Shown here piece by piece: positions 9,637 through 43,309 of a stretch of 64,000 nt of DNA (its first letter is position 1; every line of letters starts with the position of its first letter). The notes beneath the pieces were generated by a model. It saw only the letters and a list, made by a program, of their open reading frames with translations, was not told the origin of the DNA and ran no database searches. The position numbers and the translations under genes were made by a program. The stretch spans positions 1,610 through 65,609 of the forward strand of contig CAZGNZ010000017.1 of NCBI GenBank assembly GCA_964527215.1, written 5' to 3'. The DNA comes from an uncultured bacterium. Lineage in GTDB: Bacteria > Fidelibacterota > Marinisomatia > SCGC-AAA003-L08 > JACNLC01.

Positions 9637-9774
9637 TGACAATTTTGTATGTTTTGTCTCCGAGGTGCTGTCACTGGTCAAAAACGTCGTCCCTTCAGGA
9701 CTTGAATCCTTCCCTCTTTCTCTCCGGTGGCTGAAGCCACCGGCTGGACAACCATTCCCCTTCGGGGAATAAAG
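9637..9774. repeat. Array unit X1 (5'-truncated, 3 substitutions relative to X2-X4)
   Basis: Aligns to offsets 19-156 of unit X. The differences are T/C, T/C and C/T in ...GTCTCCGAGG...CACTGGTCAAAAA. Confidence 0.9.
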
Positions 9775-10042
9775 AGAATTCGATGGTTTTCCGGCAGAGC
9801 AAACCACATCTTCAATGGGATTTCCGAAGTAATACTCATCAACGGACTCAGTGACGCAGAAGCATAGGTTAAATTCATTCTGCGCAGGGATTCATCTGTC
9901 TGCCTGGCTCGTAAAAATGATCCCGGCAGGGATCAGGGTATGCAGCCGGTGGCTTCAGCCACCGGTACGGGAAGTACAATATCGCAGTCCTGAAAGGACG
10001 ACGTTAAATTGACGGACAACCATTCCCCTTCGGGGAATAAAG
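9775..10042. repeat. Array unit Y1 (268 nt)
   Basis: Starts AGAATTCGATGGTTTTCCGGCAGAGC and ends GACAACCATTCCCCTTCGGGGAATAAAG. Identical to Y2. Confidence 0.9.
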
Positions 10043-10198
10043 AAAGTACGATGGTTTTAGTGACAATTTTGTATGTTTTGTCCCCGAGGTGCTGTCACCG
10101 GTTAAAAACGTCGTCCCTTCAGGACTTGAATCCTTCCCTCTTTCTCTCCGGTGGCTGAAGCCACCGGCTGGACAACCATTCCCCTTCGGGGAATAAAG
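10043..10198. repeat. Array unit X2 (156 nt)
   Basis: Starts AAAGTACGATGGTTTTAGTGACAATTTTG and ends ...GACAACCATTCCCCTTCGGGGAATAAAG. Identical to X3 and X4. Confidence 0.9.
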
Positions 10199-10354
10199 AA
10201 AGTACGATGGTTTTAGTGACAATTTTGTATGTTTTGTCCCCGAGGTGCTGTCACCGGTTAAAAACGTCGTCCCTTCAGGACTTGAATCCTTCCCTCTTTC
10301 TCTCCGGTGGCTGAAGCCACCGGCTGGACAACCATTCCCCTTCGGGGAATAAAG
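10199..10354. repeat. Array unit X3 (156 nt)
   Basis: Identical to X2, producing an X-X doublet. Confidence 0.9.
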
Positions 10355-10622
10355 AGAATTCGATGGTTTTCCGGCAGAGCAAACCACATCTTCAATGGGA
10401 TTTCCGAAGTAATACTCATCAACGGACTCAGTGACGCAGAAGCATAGGTTAAATTCATTCTGCGCAGGGATTCATCTGTCTGCCTGGCTCGTAAAAATGA
10501 TCCCGGCAGGGATCAGGGTATGCAGCCGGTGGCTTCAGCCACCGGTACGGGAAGTACAATATCGCAGTCCTGAAAGGACGACGTTAAATTGACGGACAAC
10601 CATTCCCCTTCGGGGAATAAAG
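10355..10622. repeat. Array unit Y2 (268 nt)
   Basis: Identical to Y1. Confidence 0.9.
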
Positions 10623-10778
10623 AAAGTACGATGGTTTTAGTGACAATTTTGTATGTTTTGTCCCCGAGGTGCTGTCACCGGTTAAAAACGTCGTCCCTTC
10701 AGGACTTGAATCCTTCCCTCTTTCTCTCCGGTGGCTGAAGCCACCGGCTGGACAACCATTCCCCTTCGGGGAATAAAG
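10623..10778. repeat. Array unit X4 (156 nt)
   Basis: Identical to X2 and X3. Confidence 0.9.
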
Positions 10779-11047
10779 AGAATTCGATGGTTTTCCGGCA
10801 GAGCAAACCACATCTTCAATGGGATTTCCGAAGTAATACTCATCAACGGACTCAGTGACGCAGAAGCATAGGTTAAATTCATTCTGCGCAGGGATTCATC
10901 TGTCTGCCTGGCTCGTAAAAATGATCCCGGCAGGGATCAGGGTATGCAGCCGGTGGCTTCAGCCACCGGTACGGGAAGTACAATATCGCAGTCCTGAAAG
11001 GACGACGTTAAATTGACGGACAACCATTCCCCTTCAGGGAAATAAAG
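10779..11047. repeat. Array unit Y3 (269 nt, last hairpin degenerate)
   Basis: Identical to Y1 and Y2 except at the end, where CCCCTTCAGGGAAATAAAG replaces CCCCTTCGGGGAATAAAG. Confidence 0.9.
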
Positions 11048-11299
11048 AGAAACGGCTCTGTGCGGCAAAAAGAACCCTGTGTTCCGGCGGACTTTTCCGC
11101 TCAGATTTTCCCAAAAAGGGAATTCGTCGGCAGGTGTGAATTTCAACCGGATCGTAATTCCTTTATTTCCAATGCGATTATTGTTCTCCGGATTTTCAGG
11201 AATCCGTTTTGAGGGACGGTGCACTTTTTGGCATTGTTGTTGCGAAAAGAATGACAAATTTCATTTCTATTAAAATTCCTTTGTCGGAGATACTCAAAT

Positions 11300-11611
11300 A
11301 TGGATCAGAAACAAATCAGTTCGGGACAAAGCCTGAATAATATGATTGAACAGGAACGAATCACTGCAATCCACGAAATTATCACAACCGTTAACCATGA
11401 AATCAATAACCCGCTTACAGCCATTATCGGCAATACTGAATTGCTTGATCTGGAGCTGAAATCCGGTAATCATCAAAAATTGGCCTCCGCATTGGATTCC
11501 ATCGCCTCTGCGGCCCAACAAATAAAACAAGTCACTCAACAATTAGCCAACATTACCTCATCAAAGACTGAGATCTACGCCGGTCGAAGTCGCATGACCA
11601 GTTTGTCCTGA
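11300..11611 (+). CDS. Orphan HisKA/DHp-only protein (103 aa, no ATPase domain)
   Basis: It has an H-box-like VNHEINNPLTAIIGNTELLDLEL followed by a second helix (ALDSIASAAQQIKQVTQQLANI). An intrinsic terminator follows directly. Confidence 0.65.
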   Translation: MDQKQISSGQSLNNMIEQERITAIHEIITTVNHEINNPLTAIIGNTELLDLELKSGNHQKLASALDSIASAAQQIKQVTQQLANITSSKTEIYAGRSRMTSLS

Positions 11612-11647
11612 CCACCATCAACAGGACAGATGCTGACTCGTTTTAGG

Positions 11648-11675
11648 GGCTGCCGGTACCGGCAGCCTTTTTTTT
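11648..11675 (+). terminator. Rho-independent terminator of the DHp-only gene
   Basis: The stem is GGCTGCCGG-TA-CCGGCAGCC, followed by TTTTTTTT. Confidence 0.85.
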
Positions 11676-11751
11676 GCCAACAGAATGTTCGGAGTAAAAC
11701 AGCGTTTGCTGAAAATCGGTGTATATTCTGCGGATGATTACCAATCGCTGA

Positions 11752-14259
11752 TTACCCGGTCTCTGCTGAGGGTATTTTCACCCTCAATGTCGTGCCTTTG
11801 TCAAGTTCACTCTCCACCTCAATCACACCGTTGAACTCCTTGACAATTCCATGAACAATTGAGAGTCCCAGCCCGGTACCTTCACCCACTTCCTTGGTTG
11901 TGAAAAAAGGTTCAAGGCAGCGCTGTTTTGCAGACTCAGACATACCAATCCCATTGTCTGTAACCTCAAACACGGCAAATGGTGATCCTTCATGATGAAA
12001 AAGATGCAGGCCAATTTCAGGGCTGTACGCAGTGATTTTTCCCTGTTTTCTTTTGGATTCCACTGCAAACCTGGCATTGGACATGAAATTCACAACGATC
12101 TGCTGGAATTCCTGGGGATTGACAAGAACCAGCGGAAGGTGATCCTGAATTTCAATGTTTAATTTGATATTATGGACTTTAAACTGCTGCTGGAAAAAGA
12201 CAAGACTTTCGCGTACAGGCTGTATCAGATTGATCCGGTCCGTGGGACTGGAGGATTTCCGGGAAAAATTACGCATATGGGTAATAATGTCTGACGCTCT
12301 TCGGACCTGATTTAATATCAGATCCATATCGTTCATGGTTGTTTCCGGGATATTCTTCATGTTTCGAAACTGAAGCTTGAGAAGTTCTACCTGAGCCTGA
12401 ATGATGGCCAGGGGCTGATTCAGTTCATGAGCCACGCCGGTCGCCATCTCACCCAGTGAAGCCAGTCGGCTCGAATGCACCAGCTGAGCCTGTTTTTCCT
12501 GCAGTTCCAATGACCGTTCCTTTACCATTTCCTCCAAATGATCACGGTATTTTTCCAGTTCGGATTCATTCCTTTTCTGCCGTGTGATATCATTCCCGAT
12601 GACGACTGCGCCCTCGATCTCATTCCGGTCATTCATCAGAGGAACGGCAGAATTTAAAATAATCTTTGATTCCCCGTCCTGACTGTGAATCTGGACCGGT
12701 TCATTTAAGGTGGTGATCCCTGACTCACAGGCTTTGGCGGATGCCCATTCATGAGGCTCAATTTTCTTACCGCTGTCAAGAAACCAGCCGTCATATTCAA
12801 AGTCATCAAGGCTGTTGTTCAGTTCCGGAACTGCCCATATCCTCCGGCTTGCCAGATTGTCGCTGACCACATTCCCTTTTTTATCGGTGATCCAGACACC
12901 CACAGGCAGAATTTTCAAAACCTTCCGAATTCGCTCTTCATTTTCCCTCAGTGCCCGGCTGGCTTCCTGACGCTCCAGAAATACAGACAGCAGCTCACTG
13001 ATTACAATCAGTACCCTCTGTTCGTGTTCGTACCACTTTCGGGAGCTCAGATGATCCTCCACCACCAGATAGCTGTGCGGTTTTTCACGAAAAAGGACTG
13101 GTACTGCCATAAGCGCACGAAGTTCGGTTTTCCGGAACCACTCCACCATGACAGTATCCGAAGCAGGTACATTTTTTGAGCTTCTGATAATAACGGCCTC
13201 GCTCTGCCTGAATCGATCCATTATCCGGTGTCCCAGTTCATTCTGACGGCTCGGGAAAAAAATAGAATCCACCATAGGCTGATCCGGATTCATCCAGGTT
13301 GAACCGCCGGGAAAATCAGTCACATTATCATCCAAAGATACGATGGTCACCCTGCTGGCTTTCATTGTGGTTCCCATCAGTTTCATCAGTTGAGGGAAAT
13401 CCGGAGTATCGCCGGAAGCAAACAGACGGGATGCCCTGGCAATGGCTTCCTCCAGCATCAGATGATGAGTGATAATTTTTTCTGATTTTTTCCGTCTGGA
13501 AATATCTGTGGTCAGCACGACAATTTTGGATACTTCGCCGTCTCTGCCGTACAAAGCATAAAAATACTGTGATATCCAGGTGGCTTTACCCGGCCGGTTT
13601 TTATGCAGCCTCATTTCAGGGATATGATACTCACCCCCATTCTCGTAAACTTCCCGAACACCGGCAGCATGCTCACCCAGGTAAGAATCCCGTTGATCCA
13701 GACGGAACTGTTCGCGGGGTTCAAAATACTGAGCCAGATCCTCATCCGGAATGGCCCATATCTCTCGCCAGGCTCGATTGACGATCAGCAGCTGTCCATT
13801 TTTCTCCCGGATGGAAATACCGATGGGTGAGTTTTCGATCACAACGCGGATTAAGCCCTCGTACCCGTCTTTAATGCTGCCGGATATCTGCTGATCCATT
13901 TCCAGCGTCCGGTTGACCCGTGTCAGCTCCTGCCTGAGTTCAGCCTTTTCCAACGCAATCCTGAGAACCTGGACCGCCGGTTCAAGATATTTTTCCAGTA
14001 ATCCCTGATCTTTCTGGGCCATGCTGTCCATTGTCAGAAAACCGTATTTTCTGAAAAGGGTCTGAATTGGCATCCATCCGCTCGTGTCAGCATCAGAAAA
14101 AAGTTCCGAAGCCTGACGAAATTTCATATCGACGCCGTAACGATCCAGCAGATTGATAAAATTCTGGATGATCTGCCCCGGTTCCTCATCTTTGGATAAC
14201 TGGTAAATATGATCAATCAGATCAGGTATCTCTTTTAAAATGGTTTTATTAAAAGGCAT
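11752..14259 (-). CDS. Sensor histidine kinase HK1 (PAS-GAF-PAS-HisKA-HATPase)
   Basis: H-box LGEMATGVAHELNQPL, N-box NFMSNARFAV, G1 DNGIGM, G2 GTGLGLSIV, with upstream PAS- and GAF-like segments. Confidence 0.9.
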   Translation of the reverse strand: MPFNKTILKEIPDLIDHIYQLSKDEEPGQIIQNFINLLDRYGVDMKFRQASELFSDADTSGWMPIQTLFRKYGFLTMDSMAQKDQGLLEKYLEPAVQVLRIALEKAELRQELTRVNRTLEMDQQISGSIKDGYEGLIRVVIENSPIGISIREKNGQLLIVNRAWREIWAIPDEDLAQYFEPREQFRLDQRDSYLGEHAAGVREVYENGGEYHIPEMRLHKNRPGKATWISQYFYALYGRDGEVSKIVVLTTDISRRKKSEKIITHHLMLEEAIARASRLFASGDTPDFPQLMKLMGTTMKASRVTIVSLDDNVTDFPGGSTWMNPDQPMVDSIFFPSRQNELGHRIMDRFRQSEAVIIRSSKNVPASDTVMVEWFRKTELRALMAVPVLFREKPHSYLVVEDHLSSRKWYEHEQRVLIVISELLSVFLERQEASRALRENEERIRKVLKILPVGVWITDKKGNVVSDNLASRRIWAVPELNNSLDDFEYDGWFLDSGKKIEPHEWASAKACESGITTLNEPVQIHSQDGESKIILNSAVPLMNDRNEIEGAVVIGNDITRQKRNESELEKYRDHLEEMVKERSLELQEKQAQLVHSSRLASLGEMATGVAHELNQPLAIIQAQVELLKLQFRNMKNIPETTMNDMDLILNQVRRASDIITHMRNFSRKSSSPTDRINLIQPVRESLVFFQQQFKVHNIKLNIEIQDHLPLVLVNPQEFQQIVVNFMSNARFAVESKRKQGKITAYSPEIGLHLFHHEGSPFAVFEVTDNGIGMSESAKQRCLEPFFTTKEVGEGTGLGLSIVHGIVKEFNGVIEVESELDKGTTLRVKIPSAETG

Positions 14260-14379
14260 TGAATCCTCTCTCCAATTTGATCATATCCAACCGTTTCAAT
14301 CGATTGATCCGGATTTCGTTGGGTATTCTGCCAAGGTCCGGCCTGATGCCGCCAATGGGTATTTTCGGAATCATTGGTT

Positions 14380-17300
14380 TCAGTTGGTTTCCGGTGCGAT
14401 TCCCGCTGGGATGGCAATTCTAAACTCCGTCCCATTACCCGGAGCGGAATCCACCATCAGCTGTCCCTGGAATTCGCGAATGATATTGTGCACAATGGAA
14501 AGTCCCAGTCCGGTTCCTTCACCAACTTCCTTTGTCGTGAAAAACGGTTCAATGCAGTGTTCCTTCTCGTCCGGAGACATTCCGATTCCATTGTCGGCAA
14601 CCTCAATGACCACGGAGTCTTCAGATTCAGAGAAAAAGCTGCGGATCGTCACAATCCGCTGATACCCCGGTCCTGCATTTTCCGCCATTTTATCTACGGC
14701 ATACCGGGCATTGGACATGAAATTGACAATCACCTGTTCCAGTTTCTGCGGATTAATTCGAACCTTGGGCAAATTGGCTTCCTGCTCAACCTTCAGGTCA
14801 ATATCATTGACCCGGAACTGCTCACGGAAAAATACCAGGCTGCCGTTTACGGGATCGGCAATATCCACAAGCTCTGGATAGGACATTGTTTTTCGCGCAA
14901 ACCCCCGCATATGATCGATTATCCGGGTGGCTCTTTCGACTTCGTTGATGATGTTGTCAAGATCCCGATCCATCTCATTGCCCTGGTCTTGTTTGCAGTA
15001 TATCATTTTAAGAAGCTCCGCCTGAGCCCGAATGATGGAAAGAGGCTGGTTTAGCTCATGAGCCACCCCTGTGGCCATTTCACCCAGGGAAGCCAATCTT
15101 CCGGAATGAGCAAGCTGAGCCTGTTTTTCCTGCAGTTCCTTTGTACGCTGCTCTACCAGATCCTGAAGATGTTCCTGATAATTGGACAGCTCCTTTTCTT
15201 TCTGCTTTCGATCCGTGATATCCCGGTAAATACCGTAAACAGCCAGCTGACTGTTATCCAGAATAATTGGAGCTCCCGTCACGGAAACATCTATCGGCTG
15301 ATTATTTTTATTTTTCCGAACTGTCTCAAATTCCACCAGCTTTCCGTCCAAAACAACCTGTGTGGTTTCCAGGCTTTCCGCTTCCCTGCCTTCGGGAATG
15401 ATCAGATCATTGATGCATCTGCCGTGGAGCTCTGCCCGGCTGTACCCAAAAAGCTCAATGAAACGGATATTGGCCATAATGATGGAGTTGTTCATATCCA
15501 GCAGAACAATAGCATCCGGTGATGAGGCAAACAGTTTTTCAAAATAGGTTTTTTGCACTCGAAGCTGATTTTCAGCCTGCCATCTATCCGTAATATCTTC
15601 ACCGGAACTGAGGGTGCCCGTAATCTGTCCGCTTTCATCTCTGATGATACTGTCTCTCCACGCGATGATGCGCTCGAATCCCTCCCGTGTTGTAATGGGA
15701 TTGGTGTATTGCGGGCGCGGTTCACGCTTTCCGGTTACTATTTCCTGAAAATCCCTGTGAACTTTATCGCGGATTGAGTCCTCTATGAAGCAGTTAAACC
15801 AGTTTTTTCCAACAATTTCATTTCGCGGAAGCTCCAGGATTTCCTGGCCTTTGCGATTGATCTGAAGCACTGCACCGGTACAGTCCAAAATAAGGATGAT
15901 AACCCCGGCGATATCCAAATAAGTCTGAACTTTTTCTTTTTCTTTTCGAAGCTCGTTTTCCGTTTGACGCTGTTTTGTGACATCCATGACCAGTTCCACT
16001 GTTCCGATCACTTCACCCGTCCTGCCAATTACCGGCTGAATTCGAACACTGTACAGTTTGCTGTCACTCTCACAAATCGATTCTATTTCAACGGGCGTTC
16101 GAGTTTCCATTACCTGTTGAAAATCGCAGTCGCCGCTTATCGCATTCTTGTTTATGATTTCATCATAGCAGGGTCGGGTCGGCATTTCGTCAAAAGCCTG
16201 CTTCTGTTCAGAAGATGGATGATTGGTCCAGACGACATTCAGTTTCCGGTCCCGGAATACAATGTATTTGTAGATGCTTGCCAGTATCGCTGCTTTTTCG
16301 TATTCGCTGCGCAGCAAGGCATTATGGGTTTCAGACTGCTCTGTTATATCCTGAATGACCGTAACAATATGGCATACCCGGCCATCTTCAAACAACGGGA
16401 TTTTCCTGATCTCAGTAATCAATGTTTCCCCGTTAAAATTTAACCGGTCGGTTTTGATGATTTTCTCCCCGGTTCTGAATATGCTCTGATACTCGGACCG
16501 GCTTTTCTCGTCAATCATCGGATACGTTTCGAACAGATTCTCCCCGATGGGATTGAGATTCAGCTCCAGTTTCTTATGCAGTTTCAGCTGTGTCTGGTTT
16601 ATATCCACAATTCTGAATTCCGGATCAATCAGGAAAATACCATCAGTCATAGAGTCCACCATCTTATGGTATTTTTCCTTTTCCCAGCGCAGGTCTTTTG
16701 AAGCATTAACTTTCTCGGAAATATCACGGCATATGGATAAAACGGCGGGTGTATTCCGGTAGGTAAATGGAACGGCAGAGGTTTCAACATCCAGAACCTG
16801 TCCCTGAATGTTGATAAACTTCTGCGCTATCGAGGGCATTACTATTCCTTCGTTCAGAGTTCGGCGGATACGGTCCATGACCTGTTCATAACTGTTTTGT
16901 TGGATAAAATCTGTAATGGGCCGGCCGTATAGGTCCTCGGGATTGTCAGCGCCGGTCAGTTTCAGAGCTGCCGGATTGCAGTAAACAAGTTTGCCGTCTA
17001 TATGAATACCCACCGCATCCGGCAGTGCTTCAACCAGACAACGGTATTTTTTTTCATTTTCCTCCAGTATTTCCTGATATTCGATTCTATCTGTCACATC
17101 CCGAATAATACCGATCACACCGAATTTATAATTCTGCATTGAAGTGCGAATTTCCAGGTGCCGGTTATTGTATTCCAGGGCAAACCAGGGAACGGCGGTG
17201 CCTGTGAGCCCCTGTCGAACCATTTTGAGTATACCGGGAATTTGGGCTTTGGACAGATGTCTGCGAACGAGAGAAAATACAGATTGATCGATGACGTCTT

Positions 17301-17871
17301 CCGCTGAAAGCCCGGTCATTTCACTGAAAGCCCTGTTCACCTCCAAAACCTTTCCGGCAAGTGAAACCAAAACGATACCGTCTCCGGCATTCTGGAAAAA
17401 ACCGACATATTTTCGGTAAAGGGCTTCAAAATCCGGATCAGGCTGGTTACTTCTGTTCCGCTGGCTTTCGTGTTCATTCTGCATGACAGACAGCCGCATC
17501 AGGGTCCTGATACCAGACCGCACTGCGCTGCGCGGGACTGGAACCGGGTAGATCAATTCTGGCTCTGCACCCGCCACTGCTTCTGTAAGTTCAGAATCCG
17601 CATCCCGGGGCATGAACACCGTTACAGGGATCAGTTCTGAAACTGGATTTTCAGAAAGCGTCTGCAGGTCCCTGACGACGTCCTCTGTTCCTGCATGAAT
17701 GCGGACATCATAAAAGAGCAGGTTTGTTTTTTCTTTACCGGTCGAATTCAGGAATTGGTTCAGTGAAGTGACCCATTCTGTTTCAGAGGACGAATCTGAC
17801 ACTTCCTGAACAATATCCGACAGCAGTTCCATCAGTTCAGAATCACCTGAAATCACTGCTGTGCGGCTCAT
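14380..17871 (-). CDS. Sensor histidine kinase HK2 (N-terminal receiver-like domain, about six PAS-like modules, HisKA-HATPase)
   Basis: H-box LGEMATGVAHELNQPL, NFMSNARYAV, DNGIGM, GTGLGLSIV, with repeated PAS S-box-like segments. Its start overlaps the HK3 stop by 4 nt. Confidence 0.9.
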   Translation of the reverse strand: MSRTAVISGDSELMELLSDIVQEVSDSSSETEWVTSLNQFLNSTGKEKTNLLFYDVRIHAGTEDVVRDLQTLSENPVSELIPVTVFMPRDADSELTEAVAGAEPELIYPVPVPRSAVRSGIRTLMRLSVMQNEHESQRNRSNQPDPDFEALYRKYVGFFQNAGDGIVLVSLAGKVLEVNRAFSEMTGLSAEDVIDQSVFSLVRRHLSKAQIPGILKMVRQGLTGTAVPWFALEYNNRHLEIRTSMQNYKFGVIGIIRDVTDRIEYQEILEENEKKYRCLVEALPDAVGIHIDGKLVYCNPAALKLTGADNPEDLYGRPITDFIQQNSYEQVMDRIRRTLNEGIVMPSIAQKFINIQGQVLDVETSAVPFTYRNTPAVLSICRDISEKVNASKDLRWEKEKYHKMVDSMTDGIFLIDPEFRIVDINQTQLKLHKKLELNLNPIGENLFETYPMIDEKSRSEYQSIFRTGEKIIKTDRLNFNGETLITEIRKIPLFEDGRVCHIVTVIQDITEQSETHNALLRSEYEKAAILASIYKYIVFRDRKLNVVWTNHPSSEQKQAFDEMPTRPCYDEIINKNAISGDCDFQQVMETRTPVEIESICESDSKLYSVRIQPVIGRTGEVIGTVELVMDVTKQRQTENELRKEKEKVQTYLDIAGVIILILDCTGAVLQINRKGQEILELPRNEIVGKNWFNCFIEDSIRDKVHRDFQEIVTGKREPRPQYTNPITTREGFERIIAWRDSIIRDESGQITGTLSSGEDITDRWQAENQLRVQKTYFEKLFASSPDAIVLLDMNNSIIMANIRFIELFGYSRAELHGRCINDLIIPEGREAESLETTQVVLDGKLVEFETVRKNKNNQPIDVSVTGAPIILDNSQLAVYGIYRDITDRKQKEKELSNYQEHLQDLVEQRTKELQEKQAQLAHSGRLASLGEMATGVAHELNQPLSIIRAQAELLKMIYCKQDQGNEMDRDLDNIINEVERATRIIDHMRGFARKTMSYPELVDIADPVNGSLVFFREQFRVNDIDLKVEQEANLPKVRINPQKLEQVIVNFMSNARYAVDKMAENAGPGYQRIVTIRSFFSESEDSVVIEVADNGIGMSPDEKEHCIEPFFTTKEVGEGTGLGLSIVHNIIREFQGQLMVDSAPGNGTEFRIAIPAGIAPETN

Positions 17872-20800
17872 AATACCTTCCCTGAACCCTCTGGAATCAG
17901 ATGGGATGAATAATCAGGAGGACAGGCCGGGAAACTGATACTGACTGTTGTGCCCTGGTTTTTTTTACTGCTGATATATATAGAACCACCGAATTCACGA
18001 ACAATACTGTGAGAAATGGACAGACCCAATCCTGTTCCGACACCCACTTCTTTGGTGGTGAAAAAGGGTTCCATGCATTTCTGTTTTTCTTCCGGGTTCA
18101 TTCCAATTCCATTGTCAACCACTTTTATGGTCACATAATTTGTGAATGAATTTTCAATCGTTGTCAAACAGATTTTCATTTCCGCTCGGTTCGTATCCCG
18201 GCTTTCCACAGCGTACCGGGCATTGGACATGAGGTTTACAATCACCTGTTCCAGTTTCTGAGGATCTATCAAAATCTGAGGGAGGTTGTCTGCCAGTGAC
18301 AGCTCAAGCTGGATTCCGTGCGCCCGAAACTGTTCCTTGAAAAAAATGAGGGTCTGATTGAGAAGGAAATTTACATCGCAGGGATCGGCGGGCTGTCCCT
18401 CTTTCCGGGAAAAACTGCGCATTACACTGATAATTTTTGCAGCCCGGTCCACCTGATCCATAATTTTATCAAAATCCTTCAGTTGAGCCGGACTCATCAA
18501 ATTTCGGTTTTTACTTTGCAGGCGCAGCAGTTCTGCCTGCATTCGAATGATAGACAGGGGCTGATTGAGTTCATGGGCAACACCGGCAGCCATTTCACCC
18601 AGAGCCACCAGCCGTCCGCTGTGGACCAGCTGAGCCTGATGTTCTTTCAGTTTTTTCTGTATCTCTTTCGCCTCTGTAATATCCATCAGGAAGGAGCGAA
18701 TTTCGGCATGATCGGATTCGACATCCGGATAATATCGGGTTAATTCATAAATCCAGAAAATCCGGTCGTGATGCTGAATCCGGTATTCCTGTTCAAGCAC
18801 TCCCTGGGGCTTTGAAAGATATTCCTTCAGTTTACCCTGGACCTCCGCGGAGTCATCAGGGAATACAAGTTCGCGCAGATCCAGGCCGCCTTCAAGAAAT
18901 GCATTGCGTTCAAGTTCAAGCTGAGTAATATTCGGGGACACGTACCTCAAATGAGCCTGATCAGGCGGATTCCAGTCCCACTGGAATACAATGATAGGTC
19001 CTTCAATGAATAAATCCCGTTCTCTCTCCAATTCCCTGTTGATTACATCCAGTTCTTCCGTCCGCTTCTGTACCAGATTTTTCAGATTCTGCTTTTGCCG
19101 GTTGATATACCGGGTGCGGAAATTAATGCTGCCAAGGATTATCAGAATCACTGCCAGGACCAGAAAAATTCTGAACGGTGCGGTTCTCCAGATCGGCGGG
19201 TGTATCAGCACATTCAGCATAATCCCCTCATCGTTCCAGACACCGTCGTCATTGGAGGCCTTCACTCGAAATGTGTAGCTTCCTCCGGGCAGACTGGTAT
19301 ATGTGGCAATACGCCTGTTCCCGACGTAATTCCAATCCTTTTCAAACCCTTCCAGGTAGTAGGCATACAGGTTTCTTTCAGGCTGATTAAAAGACAGTGC
19401 CGAAAACTCAAATGAAATCACGTAGTCATCATAATTCAGTTCAATTGTATCCGTATGAAGGATTGATTTATGCAGGATTTCCCTGCCGTCATCCATTTCC
19501 CCAATGGGGACCGGCTGATTAAACAGGCTGAATCCCGTGATTTTAACAGGCGGGCTGAACGGATTCAGCGTCACATCAAGCGGGTTGAAAGCATTGAGTC
19601 CGTTAATCCCGCCAAAATAGAATGTACCGCTGTCTCCTCTGTGATACGCACCGGCGTTGAACTCGTTGCTCTGCAGCCCATCTGATTTATTGAAATACCT
19701 GAACTGTCCGTCATCGGGATTCATTCGGCAGAGACCGTTGTTGGTACTCATCCACAAACATCCGCTGTCATCGCGAATTGTACCATAGACAACATCGCTG
19801 GGAAGCCCGGAAAAGGTTGTATAGGTATCAAATATTCCGCTGATGGGGTCCAGCCGGATCAGCCCTCCGCCATACGTGCCAATCCACAGCATCGTACCGT
19901 CATTGTAGAGGGAAAGAACATCATGACTGCGTTCTGCACGGAGATATTTTCGCTGAAAGTTATGGTGTATCAAATGGCCCGGCTGTTCGGGAGTCATTTC
20001 AAAAACCCCACGGCTGTTGGTGCCGATCCAATAATGTCCGTTCTGATCCTGGGTCATGCAGGTGACGCCATATTTCAGCGGGGAATCAGCTGTTCCCGGA
20101 TCGGAGGGATAATTCCACCAAAGCCCGGCCTCGGGCTGGTAACGCGAGATACCCCTTCCTGTGGACATCCACAAGGTGTTTTCATTATCCTCAAAAATAT
20201 GATACACGCTGTTATCCAGAAGACTGTTTGGATTTTTCGGCTGATGGAAAAAACGCTGAAATGAATCCGTCTCGGGCTGATACCGATTTAAACCGTTGTC
20301 AGTTGCAACCCATATGGATTGGTCACGACTCTGGTAAATAAACCAGATTACATCAGAACTGACGGTGGTGGAATCCTCCGGAATATGGGTTTTGGTTTTA
20401 AACTCATCCGTACCAGATTCCAGAATATTGATACCGCCGAAAGTGCCGACCCAAAGCGACCCGTCTGACATCTCAAACATGGTGTAAACATGCTTGTCAG
20501 TAAGCAGATCGGGATTTCGAGGTGTGTTGTGAAATACCTTGAATTTTCGGGCGTGGGGGGCATAATAGCTGAGACCGGATCCAATTGTTCCAAACCAGAC
20601 AATTCCCTCTGCATCTTCAAAAATGGTCAGTATGACATCCCCGCAGATGGTGGAACCATCGTAGGGATCATGAAAAAAACGCGTGAAGGTTCCCTGCTCC
20701 CGGTTCAGGATATTCAGACCGTCGGAGGTCGCTATCCAGAATATTCCCCTGCTGTCTTCAAAGAAATTATAAACATAATTACAGCTCAGCGATGTCTCAT

Positions 20801-21599
20801 CACCGGGATCATTCAGATAACTCTGAAATCCATCCGTCTCAGGCAGATAGCGGCTGATTCCCCCATTTTCAGTGCCAATCCAGAGATTCTTCTGACGATC
20901 AGAATACACACAATAGATGGAATTATCCTGAACAGCATTGGGGTTTCCCGGGTCTGCCGGGTAATGGATGAATGTACTGTCAACAGGATTGAACCGGTCC
21001 AGCCCATTACTGGTCCCGATCCACAGGTTTCCGGCAGAATCAAAACTCAGGGTTGTGACAAGGTCTGAAATCAGGCTGCCCGGATCATCATCCCGGTGCC
21101 GGAATCTTCGAGCGGTGTTCCGATTGGTGTCAAGACATGCAAGACCGCCGTCAACAGAAGCAATCCACAGTGTACCGTCTTCATCCTCCGCCATCCACCA
21201 GATCGATTTTCCGGTTTGTCCCTGGAGACTGTCGGAATCGCTGGAATACCGGATGAATGACTCCCTTTCAGGATCATATCGGTTCATCCCTCCCCATTGA
21301 GTTCCCAGCCACATGCGGGATTTTCGGTCCATAAAGATATGAAACACAGACAGATGACTGAGTGTTGTTGAATCGCCGTATTCCGGCGTAAACACTTTGA
21401 ACTGCTGACCGTCATAGCGGTTGAGACCTTCCTCTGTTCCAAACCAGAGAAAGCCGCTGGAATCTTGATTTATGGCGTAAATGGTATTCTGGGAAAGGCC
21501 GTCATCAATATTGACATGTTTAAATTCAATATCCCTGTATTGCCCGGCAGCAACAGATAACAAGCAAAATATGAGCCCAATTCCAAACGTCTTATTCAT
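17868..21599 (-). CDS. Sensor histidine kinase HK3 with a periplasmic two-component-regulator beta-propeller plus Y_Y_Y domain
   Basis: It has a signal peptide and many repeats of the type WIGT..GL.R(Y/F). These are followed by a Y_Y_Y-like segment (YAYYLEGFEKDWNYVG...YTFRVKASN), one TM helix, a PAS-like domain, the H-box LGEMAAGVAHELNQPL and an HATPase domain. It lacks the REC and AraC outputs of classical Bacteroidetes HTCS proteins. Confidence 0.9.
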   Translation of the reverse strand: MNKTFGIGLIFCLLSVAAGQYRDIEFKHVNIDDGLSQNTIYAINQDSSGFLWFGTEEGLNRYDGQQFKVFTPEYGDSTTLSHLSVFHIFMDRKSRMWLGTQWGGMNRYDPERESFIRYSSDSDSLQGQTGKSIWWMAEDEDGTLWIASVDGGLACLDTNRNTARRFRHRDDDPGSLISDLVTTLSFDSAGNLWIGTSNGLDRFNPVDSTFIHYPADPGNPNAVQDNSIYCVYSDRQKNLWIGTENGGISRYLPETDGFQSYLNDPGDETSLSCNYVYNFFEDSRGIFWIATSDGLNILNREQGTFTRFFHDPYDGSTICGDVILTIFEDAEGIVWFGTIGSGLSYYAPHARKFKVFHNTPRNPDLLTDKHVYTMFEMSDGSLWVGTFGGINILESGTDEFKTKTHIPEDSTTVSSDVIWFIYQSRDQSIWVATDNGLNRYQPETDSFQRFFHQPKNPNSLLDNSVYHIFEDNENTLWMSTGRGISRYQPEAGLWWNYPSDPGTADSPLKYGVTCMTQDQNGHYWIGTNSRGVFEMTPEQPGHLIHHNFQRKYLRAERSHDVLSLYNDGTMLWIGTYGGGLIRLDPISGIFDTYTTFSGLPSDVVYGTIRDDSGCLWMSTNNGLCRMNPDDGQFRYFNKSDGLQSNEFNAGAYHRGDSGTFYFGGINGLNAFNPLDVTLNPFSPPVKITGFSLFNQPVPIGEMDDGREILHKSILHTDTIELNYDDYVISFEFSALSFNQPERNLYAYYLEGFEKDWNYVGNRRIATYTSLPGGSYTFRVKASNDDGVWNDEGIMLNVLIHPPIWRTAPFRIFLVLAVILIILGSINFRTRYINRQKQNLKNLVQKRTEELDVINRELERERDLFIEGPIIVFQWDWNPPDQAHLRYVSPNITQLELERNAFLEGGLDLRELVFPDDSAEVQGKLKEYLSKPQGVLEQEYRIQHHDRIFWIYELTRYYPDVESDHAEIRSFLMDITEAKEIQKKLKEHQAQLVHSGRLVALGEMAAGVAHELNQPLSIIRMQAELLRLQSKNRNLMSPAQLKDFDKIMDQVDRAAKIISVMRSFSRKEGQPADPCDVNFLLNQTLIFFKEQFRAHGIQLELSLADNLPQILIDPQKLEQVIVNLMSNARYAVESRDTNRAEMKICLTTIENSFTNYVTIKVVDNGIGMNPEEKQKCMEPFFTTKEVGVGTGLGLSISHSIVREFGGSIYISSKKNQGTTVSISFPACPPDYSSHLIPEGSGKVL

Positions 21600-21809
21600 A
21601 AACAGGCAATTATAAAATCAAAAACTGCAGAACCTACATACTGCACTGCAGCAGGAAATCAGCGTGTAAAAACAGTGACGATGTATTATGGATTAAGGGG
21701 GGAGCCTAATTTAACGGTATTCGATTTATTAAAACCACAAGAAGATTTCTCGAACCTGAAATCCGCACATTCGGCCGCAGCGTTTATAAATCAGCCGACC
21801 CATTGCTGC

Positions 21810-21948
21810 CCCGCATATTTCTCGAAAATATGCATGCGTAAAATGCTTCGCATATTCCGGACGATAGTATATCTGGTCGATTCTGTTTCAATTACGCTCG
21901 ATATCTGTTCTCATTTTACTGTCCGTACAATGTCGATGAATTTCCCTG
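21810..21948 (+). mobile_element. MITE-like element, variant copy D (boundaries approximate)
   Basis: It aligns to the reverse complement of copy C (CATGCGTAAAATGCTTCGCAT...CAATTACGCTCGATAT). The terminal motifs are degenerate. CTGC is present on both flanks (21806-21809 and 21949-21952). Confidence 0.6.
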
Positions 21949-22075
21949 CTGCAGGAAAAGAACCAGAGTAATACGTGCTGCAGATCAATTTTATCTCGAT
22001 TGAATCCGTCAGTGGGCGGATTTTTAATCCGTCTCCTGACGGACAAGTGTAACTGGGTGCATTCCCCGCCGCTTG

Positions 22076-22171
22076 TTTGAAATCCGCCATTTGGCGTGGC
22101 GGCGAAATAAAAAATGATTATATCACTAATGATACCCCGTCCCGTCGGCTGACGGGCGGGGAAATTCATTA
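22076..22171 (+). repeat. Short intergenic repeat family E, copy 1
   Basis: AAATCCGCCATTTGGCGTGGCGGCGAAAT...CCGTCCCGTCGGCTGACGGGCGGGGAAATTCATTA is shared with 31341-31436. It contains two GC-rich hairpins. Confidence 0.8.
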
Positions 22172-22265
22172 TTTCTATGTGTGAGATTCAGTAAACCATT
22201 GTTGAAATCCGTCTGTGATCGAGAGCGGATCAGGTGTATTTTGGACAGACTGGTGTGATCCGGTT

Positions 22266-25200
22266 TCAGCTGCTTTCCGGAATGGGTATTTTGAGCTGTA
22301 CCGAAGTACCGGACATGGGTTTACTTTTAATTTTCAGGCTGCCGTTAAAATCAGCCATGAGGTTTTGAACAATTGTAAGTCCCAAACCGGTACCTTTGGA
22401 TTGGCTTTTGGTTGTAAAAAAGGAATCCCGGCAGTGTTTGAGTTCATTTTCATCCATGCCAATCCCATTATCTGAAATTTCAAGATAGCTGCAGCGGGAT
22501 TCAGGATCAAAGCGTGCAATAATTTCAATTTCCATCTGATAGCTTTTTTCAGCCACGCTTTTTCGCTGTTCCACTGCATGCCGGGCGTTGGAGAGGAAAT
22601 TCACGACGATCTGCTCAAACCGGACAGGGTTGACGGGAATCAGCGGAATGTCATTTGGAAGACTTGTTTTGAAAATAATGCCGTGATTGCGGAACTGTTC
22701 ACGGAAAAACATCAGGCTGTCGCGAATAGGAAAGACGATATTGATCGGATCCTGATGTTCAGCTGCCATGGTTGAAAAAGTACGGGCATGTTCCATGATC
22801 TCCTGTGCCCGGTCAGCCTGTTTCATAATGTTCTGGCAGGTTTCCAGTATGTCCGTTTTCGGCGGAATATTTTTGTTCAGATTTAATTTCAGACATTCCG
22901 CCTCTCCACGGACAATTGAGAGAGGCTGATTCAGTTCGTGGGCAATCCCTGCTGCCATTTCACCCAGCAGCGCCAGTCTTCCGGTATGAGCCAGTTTGGT
23001 TTCCTGCTTCTGGAGCTCCATTTGGGCATACTTCAGTTCCGAAACATCCATGAAAAAACTGTTAAACACCTGAGCATCAGACTGCTGGGCGTCTTCGTGG
23101 ATACGAACCTGAAAATATATCCAGCGCTCATCGGAGTTGGGAAGAATCACTTTCACTTCATTTTCCAGCACTGACAGCTGACCCTCCTGCAGTTCACGGA
23201 TGCCATTTTTCAGACGTTCATAGTCTTCCGGAAACAGCAGGGTGTCATAGGAGAATTTTGCCTGCAGCACATCTTCCGGCATTACACCAAACTGAAAAAT
23301 GTTGGGGGAGGCATAGGTGGCTTTCACCGGCTTGCCGGGCTTCAGCTCCCAGTTGATCACCGCAACCGGTCCGGTAAGAAATAAATCCCGTTCAGCTTCA
23401 ATGAGTTTCTTTGATTCATTCAGCTCAGCGGTACGCTGCATCACCATTTCTTCCAGCTGCTGCTTATACCGCTGCAGTTCCTCCTCTGCACGTTTCTGAG
23501 CAGTCACATTTCGGGAAATGCCGACCATCCCCTGAATTTGACCCTTCCTGTCTCTGACCGGGACTTTGGTTGCCGTAACCCACAAATCATGATTTCTGGG
23601 ACCCTTCAGTTTCTCAAGCTTGTTGATTACGGGTCTTCCGGTCCTAAACAGCTCCAGTTCATCAGTAAGCATCGCCTCAGCCGTCTGGTTTTCAAAAAAA
23701 TCAAAATCAGACTTGCCGACAGCCTCCAGCGGTGATTTCACTCCAAGAACCCGTGCCTGCGCGTTGTTGATCAGTGTAAACCGGCTGTATTTGTCTTTAA
23801 AATATATAGTATCCGGTATGTTTTCCATCAAGGCATCCAGCAGTCCCCTGGCGGATGTCTCTTCCTGCTCCGGCGTCAGCAAATACACAACCACCGCAGC
23901 ATTGATAACGGTTGATTTATCATTGGCTGCCGGCTGAAACCGGCATTCCAGACGTCCGATGAATTCCGATTCGGCAGGCAGCGGAACCAGTACCCTGGAT
24001 GATTCACCTTCAAAGCAGCGTTTCAGGTGCTGCAGCCAGAAGGACTGATAATCCTGAGTGATAAAATCAAGCAGATGATGTCCTTCCACCGGACTTTTGG
24101 AAAACAGATCGTAACCGAAAGGCTGCTGAGCAGACAGCATCTTGATCTGATATTCGTCATCCAGCAATAAAAACATCAGATTGAAATTTTCCAGGACATC
24201 GCCAAGGATTTTCTGCCAAAACTGAGACTGGCCTTCCGGTGATATCTGAACTTCTCTTGCAATGCCCATAATTCCCGCCGGCTGATTATTTTCATAAATA
24301 ATCGTACTCCAGATTTCCACAAGAATGGACCTTTTGCTCCCGGTGATCATTCGATACTGCTCCACCCGGGTCTGAAAACCGGTCTGCCGTATTTGAGTCA
24401 GCATCACCAGCGAACGGGATAGATCAGATGGATGTATCAAATCCCGATAGCTGAGTTTTTTGAACTTTTCACCGTCATATTCAAACAGTGCCTGTGCAGC
24501 AGGATTGGCATCCACGAAGTTACCGTCAAGATCATGGATAAACAGGGGAGTCGGGGTGTTTTCAAACAGATTTTGGTGATTTTGGCTTTTTGCCTGGAGA
24601 TTTTTCCGAATAAACTGGCGGTCGGTTGCATCCTGAAAAGAGATCAGCAGCAGCGGTTCGCCGTCAATAATCACTGATCTGGCGGTCAGCTCCATGGGAA
24701 TGTCTTCTCCCTGTCCGGTTTTCAACACCCAGTTGAAAACGTGCTGCTCTTTTTTTCTGGCCACCCCAAGCTGTTTCTGTAAGTTGCGGGAGTCATCATC
24801 ATTCTGAATGAACTGCAATGGAGTCAGGTCTGATATTTTCTGATGAATCAAATCCTGGCAATCCTGGAACCCCAGTCTGCTGACAGCAGCAGGATTGCAT
24901 TCAATAATACTGTCTCCTTCCAGAAGCAGCATCGGGCGATCTGACTGATTAAAAATCTGTCTGTATTTATCTTCGGCTTTTTGAAGCTTGTTTTCCTGAA
25001 TCCGTTTACTGAGACAGCCGGAAATGCTTTCATGCAGCATTTCAAAGGAAACGGGTTTTCTAAAATAGTTCGATGCTCCCAGCCGGACGGCTTGAATAGC
25101 GGTATCGATATCTCCATGGCCGGTGACAACAATGGTCTGAAGGCTGGGCTGAATTTCCTTAGCCTTGCGGATCAGTTCAATTCCATCCATTCCCGGCATG

Positions 25201-25379
25201 CGGATATCCGCCACCATTACATCATACTGCTGTTTCCGAAGACATTCAAGGGCATCGGAACCGGAATGCGCCATGTCAATCTGGTAATTGCCGGAATAGT
25301 GCAGCAATCCTTTCTTTACCAGTCCGCACAGACTGACTTCATCATCGGTTAAAAGTACATGAGCTGAATCGTGGATCAT
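22266..25379 (-). CDS. Hybrid sensor histidine kinase HK4 (N-terminal REC, several PAS, HisKA-HATPase)
   Basis: The REC domain has DVMVADIRMPGMDG...TGHGD...KP. The H-box is LGEMAAGIAHELNQPL, with NFLSNARHAV, DNGIGM and GTGLGLTIV. Confidence 0.9.
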   Translation of the reverse strand: MIHDSAHVLLTDDEVSLCGLVKKGLLHYSGNYQIDMAHSGSDALECLRKQQYDVMVADIRMPGMDGIELIRKAKEIQPSLQTIVVTGHGDIDTAIQAVRLGASNYFRKPVSFEMLHESISGCLSKRIQENKLQKAEDKYRQIFNQSDRPMLLLEGDSIIECNPAAVSRLGFQDCQDLIHQKISDLTPLQFIQNDDDSRNLQKQLGVARKKEQHVFNWVLKTGQGEDIPMELTARSVIIDGEPLLLISFQDATDRQFIRKNLQAKSQNHQNLFENTPTPLFIHDLDGNFVDANPAAQALFEYDGEKFKKLSYRDLIHPSDLSRSLVMLTQIRQTGFQTRVEQYRMITGSKRSILVEIWSTIIYENNQPAGIMGIAREVQISPEGQSQFWQKILGDVLENFNLMFLLLDDEYQIKMLSAQQPFGYDLFSKSPVEGHHLLDFITQDYQSFWLQHLKRCFEGESSRVLVPLPAESEFIGRLECRFQPAANDKSTVINAAVVVYLLTPEQEETSARGLLDALMENIPDTIYFKDKYSRFTLINNAQARVLGVKSPLEAVGKSDFDFFENQTAEAMLTDELELFRTGRPVINKLEKLKGPRNHDLWVTATKVPVRDRKGQIQGMVGISRNVTAQKRAEEELQRYKQQLEEMVMQRTAELNESKKLIEAERDLFLTGPVAVINWELKPGKPVKATYASPNIFQFGVMPEDVLQAKFSYDTLLFPEDYERLKNGIRELQEGQLSVLENEVKVILPNSDERWIYFQVRIHEDAQQSDAQVFNSFFMDVSELKYAQMELQKQETKLAHTGRLALLGEMAAGIAHELNQPLSIVRGEAECLKLNLNKNIPPKTDILETCQNIMKQADRAQEIMEHARTFSTMAAEHQDPINIVFPIRDSLMFFREQFRNHGIIFKTSLPNDIPLIPVNPVRFEQIVVNFLSNARHAVEQRKSVAEKSYQMEIEIIARFDPESRCSYLEISDNGIGMDENELKHCRDSFFTTKSQSKGTGLGLTIVQNLMADFNGSLKIKSKPMSGTSVQLKIPIPESS

Positions 25380-40795: not shown

Positions 40796-43309
40796 ATGAA
40801 TGATATAAAAGTACTGATTGTTGAAGACGAAGTTAATCTGTGTGAGCTGGTAAAGCTGGGTTTGGAAAATATGGCCAGTAATTATCAGATTTATATCGCT
40901 CACAACGGACAAGATGCACTAGAGGTTTTGGATAAAACAGCCATTGACGTGATGGTGACGGATATCCGGATGCCCGGCATCAGCGGGATTGAACTCCTGG
41001 AAAAAACCAATGAGCTCTTCCCCGCTCTTCAGACCATTGTGATAACAGGTCATGGTGATCTGGACAATGCCATTGAAGCCCTGCGCCTCGGTGCCCTGAA
41101 TTATATCAAAAAACCCGTCTCTTTTGAAGTACTGCATTTTTCAATTCAGAAAGGGATAGAAAAAGCAAACCTGAAGCACCAGCTGGAGGCGAACGAGCAA
41201 AAATTCCGGAATGCTTTTATGTCTGCCCCGATGGGCATGATGATATTTAAACCGCACCACCCGTTTATTCAGGTTAATCAGACAGTCTGCAGCATGCTGG
41301 GGTATTCTGAAAAGGAACTTCTGAAGAAAACCATTGAGGATATTACCAATCCCATCAGCATTGAAAAAGAGTCAGAAACCATCTCGAAACTGATGGCCGG
41401 CGAAGAAGACAGCGCCAGTTACCAGACGAGATATATCTGCTCGGACAAACATGAGATATGGTGTAATGTGCATCTGTCCCGCTCAGATGACAGCACAGGC
41501 CGGACAGCCCATCTCATCGCCCAGGTTTTGGACGTTTCGGATCAGATTAAGGGATCCAAAATCAGGTCAGCCACCTACAAAATCTCCCAGGCCGCCCATA
41601 TGGCCACCAGTCCTGAGGAACTGTTCAAAAGTATCCACGACGCCATTGCCGAGCTGATGCCGGCCAGTAATTTCTTCATTGCCCTTCACGATAAAGAAAA
41701 CAATAAGCTGAATTTTCCCTATTTTGTGGATGAGAATGATCCCCCGCCCGATCCTCAGGCTTTGGAAAAAGGGCTGACAGAGTATGTTCTGAACAGCGGC
41801 AGTCCCCTTTGGGCGCCCCCGGACGTGTTTGAAGAACTGCTGCGAAACGGGGACATAGAGATTCTGGGGACACCGGCGGTTGACTGGCTGGGAGTACCTC
41901 TTACAGCCAATGATGAAGTGATGGGCGTCATGGTCATTCAGAGCTATACGGAAGGCGTATGCTTCAGCGAGGATGATCAGCAGGTTCTGGTATTTGTTTC
42001 TGAGCAGATAGCCATGTCCATCCGGCAAAAAATAATTCTGGATGCGCTTCAGAGTTCTGAAGAACAGTACCGCACCCTGATTGAACATTCCAACGACATG
42101 ATTTTCACCTGCGATACTCGCGGAAACTTTACATTTGTTAATTCTCAGACGGAGACCATCACCGGATACAAGTTGGAAAAACTTTCGGGCAAACCTTTGA
42201 CGATTGTCTCTCATCCTGATGATATTGACACCGTGAATGACGCATTAAAACGGCTTAAGACCGGTGAAACCGCCAACTACGAAACTCGAATTTTTGGTTC
42301 AGACGGCCAGGTGATATATCTGGATGTTAACAGTACACCATTGTATGAAAAAAACAAACTGCTTGGAATTGTGGGTTTCGGAAGAGACATCACGGAGCAG
42401 AAACTTGCAGAAGCCGCCCTGGAGGTGGAACGGGCATATCTGGATGAACTGTTTCTCAGTGTTCCCGAAGGCATTGTACTTGTAGATAATCAGAGCAATA
42501 TCATTCGGATTAATCCGGAATTCACCAATATTTTTGGGTACACTGAAGAGGAAGTCATCGGCAAAAATATCGATGATCTTGTGACAAATGAGGAAGTCAA
42601 GGACGAAGCGACACAGCTGACCAAAGTGTTTGGTGAGGGCAATCGTCGGAAAATAGAATCCATGCGGTACCGCAAGCACGGAGCTCCCGTACACGTATCC
42701 ATCATTGGTGCTCCCATTCAGCTGTCCACGGGTCAGGTGGCCGTGTATGCCATCTACCGGGATATCACAGAACGCAAAAATGCAGAGGCAGAACTTGCAT
42801 ACCGGGCCCGCAATGATTCCTTAACCGGATTGTACAACCGCCCCAGCTGTTTCGACCGCCTGGAACAGGAGCTCTCCTATGCCAAACGTTATAAAGTGGA
42901 TCGGGCGGTTCTGTTTCTGGATGTGGACAGTTTTAAAAAGGTCAACGACCTCTACGGTCACGATGCCGGTGATAAAATCCTGATTGAAGTTGCCCAGCGG
43001 CTGAAAGAGTCCCTGCGTGAAAGTGACAGCCTGTACCGTCTGGGCGGAGATGAATTTGTTATCATTCTCAGCAATCCCGATGAAATTTGTCCCGAAATTG
43101 TGGCAGGACGATTGAATGATGCGCTGTCAATGCCTTATGACATTTGCGGACACCACATCGATTTTGTAACCGCCAGTATCGGAATCAGCAAATACCCCGA
43201 AGATGCCATTGATGTATCAACACTGGTTAACAGAGCGGATAAGGCCATGTATGAGGCCAAAAAAGCTGGAAAAAACTGTTTCCGAAATTATACGGATCAC
43301 ATGGAATAG
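40796..43309 (+). CDS. Response-regulator diguanylate cyclase (REC-PAS-GAF-PAS-PAS-GGDEF)
   Basis: The REC domain has DVMVTDIRMPGISG...KP. The active site is an intact GGDEF (RLGGDEFVII), with an RxxD I-site (RESD) five residues upstream. Confidence 0.9.
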   Translation: MNDIKVLIVEDEVNLCELVKLGLENMASNYQIYIAHNGQDALEVLDKTAIDVMVTDIRMPGISGIELLEKTNELFPALQTIVITGHGDLDNAIEALRLGALNYIKKPVSFEVLHFSIQKGIEKANLKHQLEANEQKFRNAFMSAPMGMMIFKPHHPFIQVNQTVCSMLGYSEKELLKKTIEDITNPISIEKESETISKLMAGEEDSASYQTRYICSDKHEIWCNVHLSRSDDSTGRTAHLIAQVLDVSDQIKGSKIRSATYKISQAAHMATSPEELFKSIHDAIAELMPASNFFIALHDKENNKLNFPYFVDENDPPPDPQALEKGLTEYVLNSGSPLWAPPDVFEELLRNGDIEILGTPAVDWLGVPLTANDEVMGVMVIQSYTEGVCFSEDDQQVLVFVSEQIAMSIRQKIILDALQSSEEQYRTLIEHSNDMIFTCDTRGNFTFVNSQTETITGYKLEKLSGKPLTIVSHPDDIDTVNDALKRLKTGETANYETRIFGSDGQVIYLDVNSTPLYEKNKLLGIVGFGRDITEQKLAEAALEVERAYLDELFLSVPEGIVLVDNQSNIIRINPEFTNIFGYTEEEVIGKNIDDLVTNEEVKDEATQLTKVFGEGNRRKIESMRYRKHGAPVHVSIIGAPIQLSTGQVAVYAIYRDITERKNAEAELAYRARNDSLTGLYNRPSCFDRLEQELSYAKRYKVDRAVLFLDVDSFKKVNDLYGHDAGDKILIEVAQRLKESLRESDSLYRLGGDEFVIILSNPDEICPEIVAGRLNDALSMPYDICGHHIDFVTASIGISKYPEDAIDVSTLVNRADKAMYEAKKAGKNCFRNYTDHME

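Follow-up and report, generated by a model that had tools for sequence, protein, structure and literature searches.

Do four very large sensor histidine kinases that lie side by side on one strand, with different inputs and closely related transmitters, report to one common partner or to four separate ones? This question is raised by a 64,000-nucleotide stretch of contig CAZGNZ010000017.1 (assembly GCA_964527215.1, positions 1,610 to 65,609, forward strand) from an uncultured bacterium of the Fidelibacterota, here called the window, in which four kinase genes occupy positions 11752-25379. An earlier note on this DNA had read the block as a multi-input hub, in which one shared H-box and near-identical dimerisation and histidine-phosphotransfer (DHp) helices would permit heterodimerisation or convergence on a single partner. 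Our analysis points to a weaker form of convergence, which we put forward as possible rather than probable: the unit formed by HK1243, HK1163 and HK835 (named, like the fourth kinase HK1037, after their lengths in amino acids) may signal convergently to one class of receiver (REC) domain with an x-LLG pattern, represented in the window by the REC of HK1037 and by that of a diguanylate cyclase.

The four kinases and their H-box

Domain architectures were assigned with Pfam and differ in all four proteins, each of which is encoded on the minus strand. HK1037 (22266-25379; 1037 aa) consists of a REC at residues 8-119, four PAS domains, the last of them a PAS_3, and the DHp and catalytic ATP-binding (CA) domains. 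HK1243 (17868-21599; 1243 aa) carries a signal or transmembrane segment, Reg_prop beta-propeller repeats, a Y_Y_Y domain, a transmembrane helix at about residues 806-828, PAS_3, DHp and CA, and is the sole member with a membrane segment, the other three being cytoplasmic. HK1163 (14380-17871; 1163 aa) has 150 N-terminal residues without an assigned domain, about six PAS domains, DHp and CA, and HK835 (11752-14259; 835 aa) has 135 N-terminal residues without an assigned domain followed by PAS, GAF, PAS, DHp and CA. Sizes, strand and coordinates agree exactly with the earlier note, as does its observation of an extra PAS-like module before the DHp in HK1243 and HK1037, which is PAS_3 in both (31% identity, E = 8e-24). 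The diversity of inputs likewise stands, except that the N-terminus of HK1163, which had been called receiver-like, has no sequence support as such: Pfam gave no match, hhalign against the REC profile returned a probability below 1%, and the low-confidence single-sequence AF2 model (pLDDT 52), with a CheY-like order of strands and helices, found no match in Foldseek. A word-indexed search returned no orthologues of this N-terminus, but it also missed HK1163 itself, which is in the collection, and seems blind to proteins above about 450 aa.

All four transmitters score above the Pfam cut-off of 26.9 bits for HisKA (33.6-45.8 bits), with the AHELNQPL histidine at residues 611, 938, 1009 and 814, and score 67.6-78.8 bits for HATPase_c. 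The catalytic motifs that the earlier note had reported as shared are intact in every kinase, namely the N-box N[FL][ML]SNAR, the G1 box DNGIGM and the G2 box GTGLGL, and so is the F box FFTTK. Since the phospho-accepting histidine and these four boxes are kept in all four, none has the look of a pseudokinase. Neither a C-terminal REC nor an HPt domain was matched in the four kinases or their neighbours, so the components of a phosphorelay were not found there, and the only REC inside the block is the N-terminal one of HK1037. Judged by these motifs, the block is a set of four complete, catalytically competent, non-hybrid sensor histidine kinases.

The H-box that had been taken as the mark of the locus is present in all four proteins, although its first residue is H in every copy rather than H or S, and any two of the paralogues have 19-24 of its 26 residues in common. 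This resemblance extends well beyond the locus. Of the 26 residues in HK1163, at least 20 recur in 135 of 241 outside relatives, at least 22 in 51 of them and all 26 in one; the search with the HK1163 DHp-CA core yielded 5,237 proteins at E <= 1e-10, and the pattern H(A/S/T)GRL..(L/M)GEMA.G(I/V)AHE(L/I)NQPL occurs in nearly all of its top 120 matches. Because all matches of the word-indexed homologue search were of at most 448 aa, the closest relatives that it names are biased to short proteins, a bias corrected by an exhaustive search of the PAS_3-DHp-CA unit of HK1243 against 1.84 billion representatives, which gave 20,622 proteins at E <= 1e-30. In source records the top relatives are called 'C4-dicarboxylate-specific' or 'NtrC family' sensor kinases, and the names of the nearest kinase homologues suggest an FCB-group lineage. 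NCBIfam places AtoS first among its models for each of the four (173-278 bits against a cut-off of 646 bits), and the closest solved structures are those of CckA, ZraS and FixL. We take the H-box to be the signature of the HPK4 transmitter class in the scheme of Grebe and Stock.

By these comparisons, the transmitters of all four kinases fall in a single sub-clade of the very large AtoS/ZraS/FixL/DctB-like (HPK4, 'COG4191') family, and their H-box is the signature of the AtoS/FixL/DctB-like transmitters, with a similarity no greater than the family background. As the 26-residue H-box is family-wide, the argument from a nearly identical DHp fails as it was stated. H-box identity is thus uninformative about common partners, for which one has to look only to the hairpin loop, to helix 2 and to the contact positions that come later in helix 1.

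The same consideration bears on the strong form of the earlier proposal, in which the four kinases heterodimerise through near-identical DHp helices and the block forms one mixed-dimer signalling hub. Kinase-kinase DHp contacts are known from multikinase networks such as RetS-GacS (PMC8498467, PMC5992135), and the translational coupling of HK1243 and HK1163 described below would place their synthesis together. The N-terminal half of helix 1, at 19-24 of 26 identical residues between pairs, would seem to invite such pairing, but this stretch is common to the whole family and cannot encode a pairing preference, and one kinase is membrane-bound while three are cytoplasmic. Within the four DHp domains, divergence is greatest in helix 2 and in the hairpin loop, whose length is different in HK1163. 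Ashenberg and colleagues reportedly traced dimer specificity in EnvZ/RstB in 2011 to these regions. With dimer specificity set by the variable loop and the bundle base, heterodimerisation is left unsupported, and we regard it as highly unlikely.

Contact positions and candidate receivers

Partner choice in EnvZ has been traced to the coevolving residues T250, R251, L254, A255, E257, M258, S269, K272 and D273, among which T250, L254 and A255 dominate (Capra et al. 2010, PMC2991266). We mapped the six helix-1 and three helix-2 positions of that study on our alignment. Helix 1 reads AIAQEL in HK835, SIAQEL in HK1163, SIMQEL in HK1243 and SIGEEC in HK1037, and the corresponding helix-2 sets are LNQ, NNE, KDQ and NKQ. 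The first three helix-1 sets lie within one mismatch of SIAQEL, a property found in only 11 of the 241 outside relatives, and P0138, a full-length homologue of HK1243, retains the unusual Met (SIMQEL). HK1037 differs at three of the six positions. The specificity residues are therefore nearly the same on helix 1 of three kinases, whereas HK1037 departs from them and helix 2 differs throughout. Their near-identical helix-1 contacts suggest that HK1243, HK1163 and HK835 most likely phosphorylate the same class of receiver, and the divergent contact surface of HK1037 suggests a different downstream partner for that kinase.

Only two RECs occur in the whole window, at the N-terminus of HK1037 and in a GGDEF response regulator at 40796-43309 on the plus strand (837 aa; REC-PAS-GAF-PAS-PAS-GGDEF), a candidate output partner. 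The HK1037 REC has all its phospho-acceptor residues (DD, D, T and K-P) intact and is 56-62% identical to that of the GGDEF protein. In locus L084, immediately downstream of P0039, a sensor-less DHp-CA kinase of the same clade, lies a REC-PAS-HD-GYP gene whose REC has 50-54% identity to both, while all other RECs in the fetched loci reach at most 37%. The best curated match of the two RECs from the window is a 'NosR family' model for REC-cyclic-di-GMP-phosphodiesterases. At the equivalents of RR468 V13, L14, I17 and N21, contact positions taken from the title of PDB entry 4jav, the RECs of HK1037, the GGDEF protein and the L084 gene read S/N/E-L-L-G; the two from the window are the same at three of these four positions, and both have the beta5-alpha5 loop KPVSFE. 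The x-LLG pattern and the loop are conserved and recur in the N-terminal RECs of the same-clade kinases P0149 and P0142. These resemblances suggest that the transmitter clade is linked to one REC subfamily with GGDEF, HD-GYP or kinase outputs.

Such a receiver class would explain why no DNA-binding regulator accompanies the block. None was detected in the 64-kb window, whether of the NtrC (sigma-54) or FixJ type or any other, and overlapping contigs that add about 1.6 kb on its left and 8 kb on its right contain no regulator either. The earlier view that the block lacks a DNA-binding partner thus holds, but the two closely related RECs in the window are plausible targets. A separate observation concerns the L084 locus, where the REC-PAS-HD-GYP gene is followed, within 10392-16822 of that locus, by a giant protein of more than 2,100 aa with a REC and many PAS domains, which runs past the fetched stretch and is a further very large PAS-rich signalling gene clustered with this kinase clade.

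How might the three kinases work together? As had been noticed before, HK1243 ends and HK1163 begins within one ATGA (17868-17871, minus strand), in which the TGA stop of the former overlaps the ATG start of the latter; GGAAGG lies a few bases upstream. This overlap suggests that the two are co-translated; HK835, which follows HK1163 after 120 bp, is probably on the same transcript. The target class would be the REC subfamily with the x-L-L-G helix-1 pattern and a KP(V/I)S loop, of which the window holds two copies. A periplasmic signal sensed by HK1243 and cytoplasmic signals sensed by the PAS and GAF domains of HK1163 and HK835 would then converge on cyclic di-GMP synthesis and on control of HK1037, and the output would be second-messenger or kinase-cascade signalling rather than a locally encoded transcription factor. 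Convergent signalling with a cyclic di-GMP output is plausible on the present comparisons. The fully wired version, a many-to-few network in which three kinases with one DHp contact surface address two paralogous RECs, one a cyclase switch and the other a gate on a fourth kinase with a different output, giving a kinase cascade coupled to cyclic di-GMP and with no dedicated transcription factor, seems to us rather unlikely. Of the proposed convergence on a single partner, what survives is this weaker form for the three kinases with nearly the same helix 1; HK1037 does not conform to it, and the support once drawn from overall DHp identity has fallen away.

Several observations weigh against convergence. 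The helix-2 positions differ in all four kinases, and the similarity of helix 1 could simply come from common descent within the sub-clade. Three substitutions are enough to switch the partner of EnvZ (PMC2991266), and single substitutions create or abolish cross-talk (PMC10160972); the contact data accordingly allow a common partner for the three kinases and do not prove it. The link between the kinases and the REC subfamily is drawn from one gene adjacency, in L084, and from fusions within single proteins, and the candidate cyclase is encoded on the opposite strand at a distance of 15 kb. Promoter and terminator scans gave results no better than shuffled sequence, except for one hairpin at 11645-11670, and the operon structure is a predicted one. 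Finally, the regulators may be four separate orphans elsewhere in the genome.

This last point, taken to its end, makes the four genes insulated orphan kinases, each with its own regulator elsewhere, whose clustering would have arisen incidentally through local duplication and domain shuffling, without a common function. Their ancestry fits it. The DHp-CA cores are 42-54% identical pairwise, outside proteins reach 53-58% identity to them, and the mutual ranks of the window kinases in a 245-sequence alignment run from 2 (HK1163 seen from HK1243) to 217; by these measures they are old paralogues of one sub-clade, neither recent duplicates nor one another's closest relatives, and closer relatives exist outside the genome. 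The differences in helix-2 contacts and hairpin loops, together with the few substitutions that suffice to insulate paralogues (PMC2991266, PMC10160972), point the same way, as do the synteny breakpoint that the block adjoins (see below) and the clade member P0081, which is also an orphan, with no regulator in its 7-kb contig.

Insulation is harder to square with the helix-1 contacts, the positions at which co-resident paralogues are usually driven apart: three of the four kinases have kept a set that so few outside relatives match within one mismatch. The ATGA coupling of HK1243 and HK1163 also speaks against it, and so does the recurrence of kinase-kinase adjacency in another metagenome-assembled genome. 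HK1243 has two full-length homologues, P0138 (42% identical over 1210 aa) and a 1308-aa protein in locus L085 of 'FCB group bacterium' GCA_014384265.1 (36% over 1255 aa), and directly upstream of the latter lies a same-clade kinase whose core is 56% identical to that of HK835. Neighbouring kinases of this clade are thus found at least once more, the conservation of the block being judged from this one contig. We hold insulated signalling to be doubtful but a serious alternative, and keep convergence of HK1243, HK1163 and HK835 on one receiver class as the preferred reading.

The surroundings of the block

The block lies among housekeeping genes: a Na/Ca exchanger, rhomboid, RecO and ProRS flank one end, an M23 peptidase and DNA polymerase III delta' the other. 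A non-coding gap of 666 bp (21600-22265) with no convincing open reading frame separates HK1037 from HK1243 and is the probable site of the promoter for the downstream kinase genes. An independent assembly contig, L001 (Logan), begins within this gap, which suggests assembly-breaking or variable sequence there. The hairpin excepted from the scans above (11645-11670, plus strand) has 11 GC-rich pairs followed by a T-run, resembles a terminator and lies between the 3' end of HK835 and a small convergent gene, DHp103.

DHp103 (11300-11611, plus strand) adds a fifth DHp to the four that had been counted in the kinases. It is a 103-aa protein with HisKA only (42.5 bits in Pfam), which has the conserved histidine in a HEINNPL H-box and no CA domain. 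Homologues of 104 and 127 aa, 75% and 61% identical, occur in two metagenome contigs, and its AF2 model is a two-helix hairpin (pLDDT 79) whose top Foldseek matches are kinase DHp domains. In both relatives, L082 and L083, the order is M23 peptidase on the minus strand, then on the plus strand the DHp gene and a gene for a 350-aa REC-GGDEF protein. In the window no REC-GGDEF gene follows DHp103, and the kinase block starts 140 bp beyond it on the other strand; the synteny of M23 peptidase and DHp stops precisely where the kinase block begins, which places a synteny breakpoint at the edge of the block.

Could DHp103 be the missing common partner of the four kinases, as a phosphotransfer or phosphatase module or a decoy dimer partner? 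It is a real, conserved gene with an intact H-box, its helical hairpin is modelled with confidence and resembles kinase DHp domains, and it lies 140 bp from HK835, but it is only 18-23% identical to the four kinase DHp domains, is transcribed convergently with its own terminator-like hairpin, and stands in both relatives beside a REC-GGDEF gene and not beside kinases. We consider this role very improbable. DHp103 as a component of a hub was likewise rejected as a main reading, its conserved neighbour in relatives being the REC-GGDEF gene and not a kinase. The simplest reading makes DHp103 a module of its own, which may serve as phosphatase or phosphotransfer partner to a REC-GGDEF protein whose gene now lies at another place.

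Between the M23 peptidase gene and DHp103 lies a tandem array (9637-11062) with seven copies of a 45-nt motif (GGACAACCATTCCCCTTCGGGGAATAAAG...), which are 98-99% identical and spaced alternately by 156 and 268 nt. Each unit contains several perfect hairpins, to which the minus strand adds terminator-like hairpins followed by T-runs, and the units fold better than shuffled sequence (z = -2.1 and -2.7). Even at E <= 1 the array matches nothing in Rfam, it contains no tRNA, and viral contigs hold no exact copy of it; Rfam and tRNA searches of the whole window also gave no matches. It is missing in L082 and L083, and an independent assembly breaks at it. The array could be a set of small-RNA genes or an unknown repeat element.

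Relation to known systems

The closest comparison is with kinases of the AtoS/ZraS/FixL/DctB type (HPK4, NtrB-like), which have the same (A/G)HE(L/I)NQPL H-box, the same N, G1, F and G2 boxes and PAS-rich cytoplasmic inputs, and which give the best profile and structure matches. The four kinases are not orthologues of the characterised members, as their AtoS scores, far below the model's cut-off, indicate, and differ from them in having no NtrC- or FixJ-type regulator nearby; their likely receivers carry GGDEF, HD-GYP or kinase outputs instead.

Multikinase networks are well known (PMC5992135, PMC8498467, PMC8749435). As in the signalling of Bacillus subtilis KinA-E to Spo0F, of Pseudomonas aeruginosa GacS/RetS/LadS and of Vibrio LuxN/LuxQ/CqsS to LuxU, unrelated inputs could here feed one receiver class, and other kinases could act on HK1037 through its own receiver. 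In those networks convergence is experimental, whereas here it is read from contact residues and one gene adjacency; the present block has neither an HPt or other phosphorelay component nor hybrid C-terminal receivers, and its kinase genes are clustered whereas those of the model networks are mostly scattered. DHp103, for its part, shares with split or DHp-only modules, and with the isolated domain A of EnvZ, which retains phosphatase activity, the HisKA hairpin, the conserved histidine, the E-x-x-N motif and the absence of an ATP-binding domain. It differs from them in that no CA-only partner was identified for it and in that the DHp of its relatives is paired by position with a REC-GGDEF gene.

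HK1243 has the sensor of the Bacteroidetes hybrid two-component systems, a periplasmic Reg_prop propeller with Y_Y_Y and a single transmembrane helix, joined to another transmitter. It ends with HATPase_c, without the C-terminal REC and HTH_AraC of those systems, and reads AHELNQPL where they read SHE(I/L)RTP. Among about 160 other Reg_prop/Y_Y_Y loci none has an HK1243-type transmitter, all carrying SHE(I/L)RTP and a C-terminal REC. A scan of GTDB species representatives found only Reg_prop sensor relatives of at most 41% identity, all with a different hybrid transmitter, and a metagenome scan keyed on propeller-repeat patterns again found only Reg_prop loci of that kind. The transmitter is accompanied by a preceding PAS_3 in two of the four kinases, HK1243 and HK1037, and elsewhere the PAS_3-DHp-CA unit sits behind Reg_prop, TPR, PAS-only, REC-PAS, REC-PAS-GAF and GAF-PAS-GAF inputs, a distribution which indicates that one transmitter unit has been recombined with many sensors in this lineage.

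For now, the locus counts as an ordinary cluster of orphan kinases, members of a family that is huge and modular. It offers a natural case of one transmitter behind many sensors, including a propeller that is usual in hybrid AraC-type systems, and is as such useful for kinase engineering. If the convergent wiring is true, the block would be a compact model, open to reconstitution in vitro, of how clustered kinases with a second-messenger output integrate signals in a poorly studied uncultured lineage.

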